Below, one piece after another: positions 1 through 52,330 of a stretch of 52,330 nt of DNA (position 1 is its first letter; every line of letters starts with the position of its first letter). The position numbers were made by a program, and so were the translations under genes. The notes below the pieces were generated by a model. That model saw nothing but the letters and a program-made list of their open reading frames with translations, ran no database searches and was not told the DNA's origin. The DNA is taken from positions 1 through 52,330 of IMG/VR virus record IMGVR_UViG_3300007735_000753; one strand, 5' to 3'. The stretch comes from a virus. Lineage: Duplodnaviria; Caudoviricetes.

Positions 1-127
1 AGGTACTCGACCTTTTTTCAGGCATAGGCGGCTTTAGCCTTGGACTAGGGCGCGCAGGAATGCAGACGGTTGCATTCTGTGAAATCGACCCGTTTTGCAG
101 GCAAGTCCTGAAAAAGCATTGGCCCCA
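1..127. repeat. Terminal direct repeat (copy 1); circular-assembly overlap
   Basis: 1-127 is identical to 52204-52330; the join restores an intact methyltransferase N-terminus. Confidence 0.97.
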
Positions 128-729
128 TGTGAAGCAATACGACGATGTGAGGACACTAACTGGTGAGCAAGTTACGCGAGAAGTTGGACCCATATCAGTG
201 TGCGTTGGGGGATATCCTTGCCAGCCATTCTCTACAGCCGGGAAGCGAGGAGGCGCGGAAGATGACCGTCACCTCTGGCCTGAGATGCGTCGGCTTGTCG
301 AAGAACTCCGGCCCTCTTGGGTCATTGGAGAAAATGTTGCTGGGCACATCAGTCTGGGCCTCGACCAAGTGCTTTTTGACCTGGACGCACTCGGCTACGC
401 CTCAAGGGCGCTTGTTATTCCGGCTGTCGCCGTCAACGCCCCACACAGACGAGACAGAGTGTGGGTTGTTGCCAACGCCTCAAGCCTCGGACTGGAAAAA
501 CAGGGGGGGGGTGGGGAAATGCGAGCGTTCAACGCAGGAAGGAAATCGGCAAGCAAATCATGCTGTCGATGGTTGCCGGTGGCCCGCTGAACCCCGTGTG
601 GGTCGAGTGGCTCCAAGGCTTCCCCAGCGGGTGGACAGACTTAAAGCCCTCGGAAATTCCGTAGTCCCCCAGGTTGTTGAACTTATCGGACGCGCAATAA
701 TGGAGGCACAGCGTGAGCAAGACAGTTGA
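1..729 (+). CDS. C5 cytosine DNA methyltransferase, alpha polypeptide, interrupted by a +1 frameshift near the G9 tract at 503-511
   Basis: Motifs FSGIGG, GYPCQPFS (catalytic PC), ENV and HRRDRVW are in the frame of ORF 60..590. Motif X (RLKALGNSVVPQVVELIGRAI) is in the frame of ORF 163..729. Removing one G joins them into 243 aa. Confidence 0.88.
262..664 (+). CDS. Overlapping alternative-frame beta polypeptide of the methyltransferase (carries motif IX); same frameshift
   Basis: GAGGAGG at 247-253 lies 8 nt before ATG 262. The frame reads ...LLPTPQASDWKNRGG, and the next frame reads LNPVWVEWLQGFPSGWT (motif IX-like). Removing one G gives 133 aa. Confidence 0.7.
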
Positions 730-18639: not shown

Positions 18640-19062
18640 TTACTCCTTGATCCACTTGCACTCATCCCGGAGCATTCCAAGGACAAATGCGTCGTTAATT
18701 CCGTCGTATGCTTTGCGGGCGCAACCTTCGATCTTGAAGCCTAGCCCTGTATTCAACTTCAATGCTCTTTCATTATTTGCCCCGATGATGAGCGTCATCC
18801 GTTCCAGTCCCTGCTGGACAAACGGATAATGAAAGAGGGCGGAGAGAACTCCCTTCCTGCACCACTTCGGGCTAGAGGCTGCAAACGTCAGTTCGCAGTC
18901 AAACTTCCTCCAACGATGATAGACAGCCCCACCGATGAGCCTGTCATTCTCCGCAATGCCGATGGTGGTGTAAGGGCCGAACTCCTCGACGCCCATCTTC
19001 TGGGGAAGGAGCGTAACAACGAATTCCGCTACTTCCTGTTCTTTCCCGAATACAAGACTCAG
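18640..19062 (-). CDS. GNAT-family acetyltransferase (start uncertain, probably CTG 19062)
   Basis: NERALKLNTGLGFKIEG motif; typical position after the tail nozzle gene. Confidence 0.8.
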   Translation of the reverse strand: MSLVFGKEQEVAEFVVTLLPQKMGVEEFGPYTTIGIAENDRLIGGAVYHRWRKFDCELTFAASSPKWCRKGVLSALFHYPFVQQGLERMTLIIGANNERALKLNTGLGFKIEGCARKAYDGINDAFVLGMLRDECKWIKE

Positions 19063-20597
19063 ACGAGGCCGGCGGGCTTCATCACCATGCTTGAGGATCG
19101 CCAGCTTACGCCTTGGCTGGTCAGCGAGACCCGCAACCGCATCGAAGCTGAGTAACCCAGCCCGTTCACGCCTTGCCACCCTCTTACCGACTGGCTCGCT
19201 CCGCCCCATACATCTACATCCCATATTGCTTCGTCCCAGATACCGCCGCTATCAACGGCAGCCGTGGAAACGCTTGAGGTTGGAACCGAAATATCAAAGT
19301 CCGTCCCGATTGAAATCAACGCACCGGGATCGCTGACGGCTGAGAAGATAACCCGAGCCATCGTGAAGTTCTTCAGTCGATCACTTGATCCGAAGAAATT
19401 CCATGCTGTCTGGGCATCTCCCACAATGGCGGACCCATTATCAGAGTACCCATCGTTACACTTGTAGACCTTCCCGTCCGTTCCCCCTCCGTAGAGGTTA
19501 TCGTTGAACAGACCGAAGATCGGGAAGTTCCATCCGGTGAACTTGCACCAGGATTGCGTGTCCGTATTCATCACGTGTTGGTCAAAGGCGGAGGTAGACC
19601 GTGGCACGTTGAAGATGAGCATTCGCCCACGGGGGTAGAATATGGCCTGCCAGCCCGTGTTGTCCCGGTAGAGGCGCATGGCCTCGGACACAGCAAGGGA
19701 TATCTTGTCTGAAAGGTCTAACTGGCTGGGCTGGGTACGACCGAAGGGGAGAACCTTCGTGAGTGGAGTGTATGACCCGTCTGTAATAGCAATCAGATCA
19801 GAGCCAAACTGAACGAGGCTGGAGTTGCCAATCGGAGGGCCAAGGTAGAACGTACCCACGCGAGACCAATCCGTAGACGATCCCGGATCAGACCCCTGAT
19901 AGATAATCACTTCACCCGACGAGAGGAAGAACGCGATCAGGTCATCCTGTCCCGTACCGCCATCGCTTGTGATTGTACCAATCGCCTTGAGCACACCACC
20001 GAATGAACCCGTGTACTTCAGCGGGAACTTGGTGAGGCTTCCCGAGATTGCTTGGAGTCCCGCATACCAGAAGTTCAGGGTGTTCTTTTCAATGAAGAAA
20101 AGACGTTCCTTGAAGACTGCTACATCGGAGAGATTGGTAACGGTAAGCCCCGACCCCGACCATGAGGTGGAGGTTAGAGTTGACCCATCATAATCTTGAG
20201 GGGCGTCCGTTCCATTGACAAGGAACAACCGCTCGGAGAAGTTCACCCACTTCCATCGGTTCTGGCTGAAGCCGGTTCCAATTGTGGAGGGTGTAGATGT
20301 GGAAACGTCGATAAGCTTCCCATTCACTGCTGCAACCAGCTTCCGACTAGTAGACGCCTTCCACTCAGCAAGGGTCTGGACTGAATAAGCACCCTCCCCC
20401 GTATTGCAATGGAGCGTGTGCCCCCCCCTGATGACCACATCACTCTGACGGGGGAACCAGTTCTCGAGGATGACGGCATCGCTCGGCTTCATGGAGTCTA
20501 GTGCGTCTCGTGCGTTCCACCCACCAACCGGAGGCGGCAAGGGGCGCTCAACCGCTGCGGGACCGCGACTGACCTGCCTGCCTCTGATCTGGAGCAT
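19059..20597 (-). CDS. Tail nozzle / packaged-DNA stabilization protein
   Basis: PPVGGWNARD...ENWFP, beta-propeller-like repeats, C-terminal WDEAIWDVDVWGG. Confidence 0.8.
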   Translation of the reverse strand: MLQIRGRQVSRGPAAVERPLPPPVGGWNARDALDSMKPSDAVILENWFPRQSDVVIRGGHTLHCNTGEGAYSVQTLAEWKASTSRKLVAAVNGKLIDVSTSTPSTIGTGFSQNRWKWVNFSERLFLVNGTDAPQDYDGSTLTSTSWSGSGLTVTNLSDVAVFKERLFFIEKNTLNFWYAGLQAISGSLTKFPLKYTGSFGGVLKAIGTITSDGGTGQDDLIAFFLSSGEVIIYQGSDPGSSTDWSRVGTFYLGPPIGNSSLVQFGSDLIAITDGSYTPLTKVLPFGRTQPSQLDLSDKISLAVSEAMRLYRDNTGWQAIFYPRGRMLIFNVPRSTSAFDQHVMNTDTQSWCKFTGWNFPIFGLFNDNLYGGGTDGKVYKCNDGYSDNGSAIVGDAQTAWNFFGSSDRLKNFTMARVIFSAVSDPGALISIGTDFDISVPTSSVSTAAVDSGGIWDEAIWDVDVWGGASQSVRGWQGVNGLGYSASMRLRVSLTSQGVSWRSSSMVMKPAGLV

Positions 20598-49916: not shown

Positions 49917-50332
49917 CCAAGCGCCCGCATATCTCAAACAAGGTTTTGGTCCAGATCGCCATCCAGCAATCCATGAACGGGTGGATCTCCTGCCCCCTGT
50001 GCCACGCCCCGCTCTTCCCGGAAGAGCCGCGCATCCTCGAGCACATGGTCCCTCATGAACTGGGTGGGTCATCCGATGCTGAGAACCTTCGCTTCGTTCA
50101 TAAGGACTGCGCCTCCCGGAAGACAAACGGAAGCAAGGCAACATCTGCCGGCGGAGACCTTCACAAGATCGCAAAGGGCAAGCGCCTGGAGCGGGCAAGG
50201 CTGGCTCATGAAGCAGCGGTGCTGGGAAAGACCTTCAAGCCGGAAGAGCCCTACACATTCGTCAAGCGCAAATCGCGTCCCATTCCCTCCCGTCCATTTC
50301 CAACAAGGAAGCCACGCAATGGCCACGCCTAA
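49913..50332 (+). CDS. HNH endonuclease
   Basis: CPLC...EHMVPHELGG...NLRFVHKDC. Confidence 0.8.
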   Translation: MTKRPHISNKVLVQIAIQQSMNGWISCPLCHAPLFPEEPRILEHMVPHELGGSSDAENLRFVHKDCASRKTNGSKATSAGGDLHKIAKGKRLERARLAHEAAVLGKTFKPEEPYTFVKRKSRPIPSRPFPTRKPRNGHA

Positions 50333-50960
50333 GAAGGGTTACTTCACGCAGGACGGGACGAAGGTTCCTTCTGTCACCACGATTTTATCAAGGTTCAAGG
50401 AAAGTGGGGGGCTTCTTCACTGGGCGTGGAAGCTTGGCACGGAGGGGAAGGACTATCGCTCTGTACGGGATCAAGCAGCAGATGCTGGAACCCTCGCCCA
50501 CGAGATGATCGACGCCTACATCCATAAGCAGCCGATGACGGTTGAGGGGGATGGTGAAGTTGTTCGTCAGGCAAGGAATGCGTTCCAGGCTTACTGCAAC
50601 TGGGAAGCATCGTCTGGCATCAAGATTGAGTGGACCGAAAGGCAGTTGATATCCGAGCAGCACAAGTTCGGTGGAACGCCAGATGCGTTTGGCATCATTG
50701 ATAACAAGCCGATCCTATTGGACTGGAAGACAAGCAACAGCGTCTATTCCGACTACCTGATCCAGCTGGCGGCCTATGCCCTGCTCATCAAGGAGAATTA
50801 CGGAGTGGACGTTCAGGGGCACTACCTCTGCCGCTTCTCCAAGGAAAATGGGGACTTCAGCGTCCACCACTACCCTGATCTTTCCGAGGCGACGAAGATG
50901 TTTCTTCTCCTGCGAGAAGCATACGACCTCGACAAAATCATTCGCAAACGCGCGGCTTAA
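50319..50960 (+). CDS. PD-(D/E)XK exonuclease (Cas4-like, recombination)
   Basis: PSVTTIL, GTLAH, GTPD, LDWKTS and QLAAY motifs. Confidence 0.85.
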   Translation: MATPKKGYFTQDGTKVPSVTTILSRFKESGGLLHWAWKLGTEGKDYRSVRDQAADAGTLAHEMIDAYIHKQPMTVEGDGEVVRQARNAFQAYCNWEASSGIKIEWTERQLISEQHKFGGTPDAFGIIDNKPILLDWKTSNSVYSDYLIQLAAYALLIKENYGVDVQGHYLCRFSKENGDFSVHHYPDLSEATKMFLLLREAYDLDKIIRKRAA

Positions 50961-52000: not shown

Positions 52001-52195
52001 GCGTTCTGCTGACACTGTACTTGGCTGGGATGCCACTCGCAGCCGCGCTCATGCTGTGGTCGCTCGTTGGGATAGACGAGCGAAGACTGGCGCGAGCTTT
52101 GCACACTTCCGGGGATGGCTGCGCTGGTGGTGTTTGTCGTGCTGTGGCCTGTGTTTTTAGCCATCAGCGTTTATGAAGTTTGGTCGGAGAGGTAG
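51997..52195 (+). pseudogene. Small membrane protein gene with an apparent +1 frameshift near 52081
   Basis: First TM (MSVLLTLYLAGMPL) in one frame; second TM (MAALVVFVVLWPVFLAI) in the +1 frame. Confidence 0.4.
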
Positions 52196-52199
52196 CCGC

Positions 52200-52330
52200 G
52201 TGAAGGTACTCGACCTTTTTTCAGGCATAGGCGGCTTTAGCCTTGGACTAGGGCGCGCAGGAATGCAGACGGTTGCATTCTGTGAAATCGACCCGTTTTG
52301 CAGGCAAGTCCTGAAAAAGCATTGGCCCCA
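52200..52330 (+). CDS. 5' end of C5 cytosine methyltransferase (continues across the circular junction)
   Basis: GTG at 52200 gives MKVLDLFSGIGGFSLGL, which is SAM-binding motif I (FxGxG). Confidence 0.93.
   Translation, partial: MKVLDLFSGIGGFSLGLGRAGMQTVAFCEIDPFCRQVLKKHWP
52204..52330. repeat. Terminal direct repeat (copy 2)
   Basis: Identical to 1-127; 127 bp is a typical assembler k-mer overlap. Confidence 0.97.

Follow-up and report, generated by a model that had tools for sequence, protein, structure and literature searches.

The conserved motifs of a DNA cytosine-5 (C5) methyltransferase are spread over three reading frames at one end of a phage genome. Is this a single decayed gene, or have two overlapping genes been thrown out of frame together by one base? 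The window analysed here, meaning the whole stretch of DNA, is the complete IMG/VR virus record IMGVR_UViG_3300007735_000753, 52,330 bases in length. We propose that the locus is a phage orphan DNA C5 methyltransferase that would be made as two polypeptides from overlapping frames of one stretch of DNA. The longer chain (alpha) would start at GTG 52200 and, at the in-frame length of an internal G run, comprise 243 amino acids with motifs I–VIII, a poorly constrained linker and motif X. The shorter chain (beta), in the +1 frame, would start at GTG 163 and comprise 166 amino acids with an N-domain, one PTPxAxD cassette and motif IX. Beta would be translated from its own ribosome-binding site inside alpha, and would dock on alpha by setting its motif IX against motif X. 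Features are on the plus strand unless stated otherwise.

Layout of the methylase locus

The record is a circular assembly, because its first 127 bases recur at its end (1–127 are identical to 52204–52330). This terminal repeat cuts through the methylase gene, and the first codons of the gene are found at the far end of the window. The alpha start region (52186–52330) comprises GGAGAGG at 52186–52192 and GTG 52200, with the repeat beginning at 52204; from the GTG, the gene crosses the circular junction and enters the window at position 3, in frame 3. The N-terminal part of alpha (3–502, frame 3) carries motifs I (FSGIGG, 15–32), IV (GYPCQPFS, 210–233), VI (GENV, 327–338) and VIII (RRDRVWVV, 447–470), followed by the start of the linker; the frame-3 open reading frame (ORF) spans 3–590 in the assembled window. 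The four signatures that together identify a C5 methyltransferase chain (FxGxGG, PCQ, ENV and RxR) are thus all present in frame 3. The frame matches Pfam PF00145 (E 1e-35, over profile positions 3–167 of 324 only) and TIGR00675 (E 9.6e-30; 104.3 bits against a cut-off of 100.65), and both profiles are matched only over their first half (positions 1–167 of 324 or 329). A target-recognition domain (TRD), motif IX and motif X do not follow in the same chain, and motif IX lies in another frame.

The C-terminal part of alpha is in frame 1 (511–729) and consists of the rest of the linker, the segment EPRVGRVAPRLPQRVDRLK (589–645), motif X (LGNSVVPQ, 649–672) and a stop codon at 727–729. The segment EPRVGRVAPRLPQRVDRLK is the motif IX DNA as read in the alpha frame. 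In two related proteins (P0003 and P0004), this C-terminal part is joined to motifs I–VIII as one chain. Opposite the cassettes of beta, alpha has a linker that varies in length.

The +1 frame opens after a frame-1 stop codon (TAA, 157–159), and GTG 163 lies 16 codons before motif IV and behind GAGGA (149–153), which makes 149–165 the likely start region of beta. The N-terminal part of beta (163–510, frame 1) holds a conserved N-domain and one PTPxAxD cassette, LLPTPQASDWKNRGG (466–510); its C-terminal part (512–664, frame 2) holds the cassette NASVQRRKEIGKQ (518–574), the motif IX-like segment LNPVWVEWLQGFPSGWTDL (587–643) and a stop codon (TAG, 662–664). An earlier note on this DNA had described just such a distribution, and all of it is in the sequence: motifs I–VIII in frame 3, motif X in frame 1 and a motif IX-like end in frame 2.

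The same note had placed the beta start at ATG 262, behind GAGGAGG at 247–253 (region 247–264). That start is not borne out: conserved beta residues, GDILASHSLQPGSEEARK, lie upstream of it, and in 112 of 131 loci of the family (described below) the first +1 start is found 8–25 codons before motif IV. Beta most likely starts at GTG 163, which would give 166 amino acids at a tract of eight Gs, because the segment encoded from 163 to 262 can be aligned with the N terminus that is conserved in the betas of relatives, because family beta starts cluster 9–17 codons before motif IV (the window is at −16) and because a close relative, L186, shares the start GTG AGC AAG. At best, ATG 262 may be a secondary internal start similar to those reported for M.EcoHK31I.

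The coding signals in the window are far beyond chance, and the two beta pieces match one protein family, phrog_1008 ('DNA methyltransferase'), in colinear order: 163–510 matches profile positions 42–146 (E 9.9e-24) and 512–661 matches positions 259–281 (E 2.9e-5). The C-terminal part also matches phrog_26627 (E 2e-10). When compared with the beta frames of other loci, the window pieces show 56–72% identity overall, and the N-terminal part shows 60–72% identity (E about 1e-40). No model in Pfam or NCBIfam matches beta, and the AlphaFold model of beta alone is poor (pLDDT 59.1, pTM 0.25). Across the family, beta consists of the conserved N-domain, PTPxAxD cassettes in varying number and motif IX; there is one PTPxAxD cassette in the window, there are two in L186 and there are many in other loci. 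In our reading, the large catalytic domain is supplied by alpha and the small target-recognition domain by beta, because the linker of alpha changes more than beta does relative to L186; this placement of the TRD, drawn from sequence comparison, is also consistent with the location of the variable-number cassettes in beta.

The upstream neighbour of the methylase gene (50319–50957) has a match in phrog_298, a family of exonucleases (E 6.7e-36). The eight remaining small neighbours that were tested match no named family, and no restriction endonuclease was seen among the neighbours. Elsewhere in the record, two minus-strand ORFs (18640–19224, 194 amino acids; 19059–20597, 512 amino acids) overlap by 166 bases in different frames, and their overlap contains no homopolymer of six or more bases.

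The second frame across the family

A pattern search of viral contigs gave 586 matches, 580 of which encode a relative; we analysed the best 80 of these 580, together with 80 metagenome loci and 80 loci from bacterial and archaeal genomes. Under strict patterns, motifs I, IV and X are in one frame and the IX-like motif is in the +1 frame in 131 of the 160 virus and metagenome loci, the +1 ORF in these loci carrying PTPxAxD cassettes as well as motif IX. The alpha frame contains the IX-like motif in none of these loci. Among the remaining 29 loci, four were flagged as having a broken or cut alpha and 25 were read by eye. Seven of the 25 do have a clear motif IX in the +1 frame that the patterns missed, and a +1 beta is also present in five members of a subfamily with the motif IV variant GFPCQDIS. 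Four are cut by contig ends, in three alpha is interrupted by an in-frame stop while beta is intact, L066 is frameshifted and five match no motif IV pattern. In the genome set, 50 of 80 loci satisfy the strict patterns, and reading by eye added 14 of another 15; the others are cut, are pattern misses or are broken (L204 and L264).

The +1 frame is far more open than the alpha sequence would require. We examined the 66 of the first 80 loci that pass all motif patterns, over motifs IV to VIII (a mean of 80 codons). All 66 loci have a +1 frame free of stops, whereas 200 synonymous-codon shuffles leave it open in 4.3 of 66 on average and in 12 at most; the +2 frame is stop-free in none (307 stops). 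Synonymous sites are constrained in the same region. For identical residues in pairs of sequences that are less than 60% identical, the rate at which the codon is also identical is 0.35 before the overlap, 0.55 within motifs IV–VIII, 0.82 under motif IX and 0.34 after the beta stop. The boundaries of the frame recur as well: the most common position of the first +1 start is −14 relative to motif IV, often after AAGGAG, and 74 of 131 loci have the beta stop one codon ahead of the GN in motif X. A profile built from 70 beta sequences retrieves 46,738 representative proteins at E ≤ 1e-3.

A structural model of one alpha–beta pair from the family (L083), built with our own alignments, has an ipSAE of 0.91, against 0.00 for the best of three controls. 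Solved complexes attain this mark in 58 of 80 cases and mismatched pairs in 2 of 110; the pass may nevertheless reflect only likeness to the halves of a fold that has been solved as single chains. At least 84% of contacts are common to the runs, the pLDDT of the partner is at least 69 and, in the model, motif IX sits on motif X, near motif I. We consider a two-subunit nested gene at this locus to be very likely, and the two-subunit reading is strongly supported. Conservation of the second frame in homologues, which the earlier note had offered as the point on which its proposal could fail, bears out the dual-frame part of that proposal. Together with the restoration of both frames by one base fewer (see below), it upholds the idea of a dual-frame methyltransferase of the alpha/beta kind. 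In the relative L186, beta lies inside alpha in another frame with both genes in frame; in the window record, a beta with motif IX and an alpha with motifs I–VIII and X are obtained only at a tract length of 8.

Several variants of the layout were also observed. In the three loci with an in-frame stop in the alpha linker (L040, L057 and L089), the conserved motif X part continues in the same frame; these could be three-piece enzymes, cases of readthrough or fresh nonsense mutations. The GFPCQDIS subfamily (L127, L133, L145, L153, L154, L226, L244 and others) has a +1 beta with a different N-domain (…SSWRTSQ…WPRSGMMRNG…), and the nested layout therefore spans divergent methylase clades. Five database proteins (P0289, P0293, P0306, P0313 and P0331) are single-frame chains of 250–280 amino acids in which the beta N-domain is followed by an internal IX-like motif (NPxLxEWLMGYE), then by a further PTP cassette and an alpha-type tail (EPGVGRV...GNAVVP). 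With 4–6 members in some clusters, such chains may represent a genuine alternative layout. Cellular genomes contain broken alleles as well: alpha is shifted just before motif X, with beta intact, in an isolate genome of Sphingomonas glacialis (L264), and a metagenome-assembled genome (MAG; L204) has the same three-frame topology as the window.

The G tract and the state of the gene

Both frames of the window cross one run of nine Gs (503–511), which would be read as Gly-Gly in each frame at an in-frame length of 8. L186, which is 84% identical in nucleotide sequence and intact in both frames, has seven Gs and then a C at this position, and its alignment with the window contains exactly one extra base in the window tract. 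Between 469 and 664, 20 nucleotide differences from L186 change 13 of 60 alpha residues and 4 of 62 beta residues. Changes in beta are few on both sides of the tract, with no decay after the break.

A script in which only the tract length was varied gives the consequences for each frame. At G9, as assembled, the ORF from GTG 52200 has 197 amino acids and that from GTG 163 is a 188-amino-acid fusion of the beta front to the alpha tail. At G8, the first ORF has 243 amino acids with motif X and the second has 166 amino acids with motif IX, or 133 when counted from ATG 262; the claim in the earlier note that removal of one G repairs both frames (243 and 133 amino acids) is thus reproduced to the residue. 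At G7, the first ORF has 221 amino acids, with motifs I–VIII joined to motif IX, and the second has 141 amino acids. The G9 tract would therefore truncate alpha after motif VIII, fuse the front of beta to the motif X tail of alpha and leave motif IX orphaned, from which it follows that the methylase is most likely off in the molecule represented by the record.

The tract is the longest homopolymer in the record, and a homopolymer of about 8 or more bases in a reading frame, as is characteristic of phase-variable genes, is present in the form of this run. The run by itself is not beyond chance, as a base-composition model predicts about 0.96 G or C runs of at least 9 bases per window. The next-longest run, C8 at 20421–20428, is inside the intact 512-amino-acid ORF. 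An obligatory G8, forced by Gly-Gly in both frames, was also considered and ruled out: the beta residues are retained despite interrupted runs in L186, as its DNA shows, and in P0004 and P0011, as deduced from their proteins.

Other assemblies show different tract states. A 32,437-base contig from another assembly of what is probably the source sample covers positions 1–1500 with G7 as the only difference, and is the source of the protein P0001. In a second study, contigs break inside the tract: one stops at 509, and the first nine bases of another, from 503 onwards, are Gs. No G8 was seen among contigs of the phage from either study. Nine assemblies contain the tract region, and the genes are in frame in six of them (P0003, P0004, P0006, P0007, P0011 and P0012); the exceptions are the window (+1), P0001 (−1) and P0009 (+1, inferred from the protein). 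A further protein, P0008, is shifted at a different G run (again judged from the protein). Some relatives have interrupted tracts—four Gs, T and three Gs in P0011 (inferred) and seven Gs then A in P0004—and more-distant relatives have only four Gs at the site. Of the two features that the earlier note expected in homologues, the beta frame is conserved but the tract is lacking in most. DNA pattern scans of viral contigs for the tract and its flanks returned no near relative besides L186 (one scan gave 22 loci, all with four Gs or unrelated, and another gave 2 loci, one of which is unrelated), and scans of metagenomes and genomes with P0003 yielded only relatives of 35–73% identity, with no further tract states. 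In-frame G runs were also seen in intact nested genes at other sites, a G11 near the beta start in L024 and a G9 near motif IX in L046; these are other candidate slippage sites in the family.

We favour, by a modest balance of probability, real variation in tract length, with the record as an off variant: replication slippage would vary the tract among phage genomes, and the population would hold both on and off variants. The G9 and G7 states and the contig breaks at the tract fit either real heterogeneity or homopolymer noise, and both on and off lengths were not found together in contigs of one lineage; in-frame lengths were found only in relatives.

The earlier note had itself named a sequence error and a dead allele as alternatives, and the noise has to be weighed first. 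If the real length were 8 and both genes intact, G9 and G7 would be consensus errors at a homopolymer that is hard to read. It is in keeping with such an error that two assemblies of probably one sample differ by two bases at about 10x depth, that both frames are otherwise perfectly kept next to L186 and that two thirds (6/9) of the assemblies with the tract region are in frame; contig breaks, too, can come from low depth (5–10x). Against an error, G9 recurs: it is present in the IMG/VR record and opens a contig from another study, neither of which has G8. The C8 run elsewhere in the record is in frame, which argues that the assembly is not generally poor at homopolymers. We think an assembly or sequencing artefact possible but unlikely, and judge real tract-length variation to be likelier than pure artefact.

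A fixed dead allele, in which the phage lineage carries a frameshifted methylase that it no longer needs, would have company in the family: about 3–5% of loci are broken in some way, L066 and L204 share the frame topology of the window, L264 is shifted just before motif X and L040, L057 and L089 have a stop in alpha. Fusions of a beta front to an alpha tail make up 34 of 120 among the listed database proteins, or 55 when 21 that also have the IX-like motif are included. Such a fixed allele seems to us quite improbable, however, as there is no second lesion, conservation of the beta frame continues past the break and assemblies disagree on the tract length, contrary to what a fixed allele would predict. 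The fusion as a normal third layout of the family was considered separately and ruled out, as it accounts for about 1–3% in unbiased locus sets; its share is inflated among database proteins because the query was itself such a fusion.

Still less probable, in our estimation, is recoding, in which the genome truly has G9 (or G7) and working alpha and beta would arise from transcripts or ribosomes that slip on the G run. The run is a perfect slippery sequence in both frames, a −1 slip on G7 would, by reasoning from the sequence, give the same alpha and beta residues as G8, and the in-frame allele was not seen among the phage contigs. Recoding finds no stimulatory RNA structure downstream, where 512–610 folds at −32 kcal/mol (z = −0.19 relative to shuffles), and the interrupted in-frame tracts of relatives argue that slippage is not a feature of the family.

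That the +1 frame is only a by-product of alpha conservation, or that a single chain is made through two ribosomal frameshifts, is extremely improbable. The lack of a Pfam or NCBIfam match for beta would fit such a reading, but all 66 loci examined keep the +1 frame open against a null mean of 4.3, synonymous constraint peaks under motif IX and ends at the beta stop, a start with its Shine–Dalgarno sequence is conserved some 100 codons before motif VIII, and the alpha linker is more changeable than beta. In addition, phrog_1008 and 46,738 called relatives exist and M.EcoHK31I is, in its published description, a proven precedent.

Known systems and implications

The precedent that the earlier note drew on is M.EcoHK31I, the original paper on which is reportedly that of Lee, Kam and Shaw (1995). 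As described in the available text of two later papers (PMC2836561, PMC3404938), this Escherichia coli enzyme (recognition sequence YGGCCR) is a two-polypeptide C5 methyltransferase in which both chains are needed for activity and internal Met codons of beta can act as extra starts. The principle at the phage locus would be the same, beta lying wholly inside alpha in a different reading frame (PMC2836561, PMC3404938), a likeness that is based on the published description of M.EcoHK31I rather than on sequence comparison. The parallel therefore holds for a nested beta that carries motif IX, but probably not for the position of the recognition region: the phage beta also carries the variable cassettes, which we read as the TRD, whereas the TRD of M.EcoHK31I is placed in alpha in those accounts (PMC2836561, PMC3404938). 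As far as that description goes, the phage beta also differs in being about two thirds of the length of alpha and in opening before motif IV. Unlike M.EcoHK31I, the family is mostly found in phages and prophages, with no partner endonuclease seen beside the window gene.

M.AquI (CYCGRG) is another two-subunit C5 methyltransferase, in which the second subunit holds motifs IX and X, according to the relevant text of PMC3404938. It resembles the phage system in that the enzyme is split in the variable region into two assembling chains (PMC3404938). It differs in that no frame overlap is mentioned in that text (PMC3404938), whereas in the phage motif X stays on alpha and the genes overlap. The papers that our search turned up regard C5 methyltransferases of this two-polypeptide kind as rare exceptions and name M.AquI and M.EcoHK31I. 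Our literature search found no paper that calls the nested layout widespread or that places recognition cassettes in beta.

A nested pair is already present in the annotation of an isolated phage. Paenibacillus phage Likha (GenBank MG727702.1) has a 234-amino-acid +1-frame coding sequence (CDS) inside a 345-amino-acid methylase CDS (LIKHA_51 / LIKHA_52), with the same N-domain, PTP cassettes and LNPDWVECLMGFPIGWTD. The Likha pair is known from annotation only, in which both CDSs are named DNA cytosine methyltransferase, and it has no homopolymer break. The available text of PMC6070908 does not discuss the pair.

Hypermutable poly-G tracts have reportedly been described in Campylobacter phages by Sorensen et al. 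2021 (Cell Rep 35:109214), in a paper the title of which is said to refer to phenotypic diversity and to evading bacterial resistance. Phasevarions involve phase-variable methyltransferases of bacteria, and those named in the available text of PMC12707154 belong to Type I and Type III systems. As in these cases, so far as they are described there, a G run lies in a reading frame and its length decides the product; unlike in them, one tract would switch two overlapping genes at once if the putative switch is real. That one G run acts as a stochastic switch, turning both subunits of a phage anti-restriction methylase on and off together, is a reading that we hold only tentatively and consider distinctly unlikely. 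If true, it would be a phase-variable epigenetic trait in a virus, and the phage population would spread its bets between hosts that restrict unmethylated DNA and those that restrict the methylated form.

Nesting of the two genes is the rule in this very large phage and prophage family, and annotation usually records a methylase without its probable recognition half, because neither Pfam nor NCBIfam models beta. The overlap is about 170 codons in the window phage and longer in others, which makes the family a clean natural case of long same-strand dual coding. It is a testable idea that gain or loss of one base could switch off or rescue both genes together and, if the tract length truly varies in the population, these phages could vary their own methylation state.
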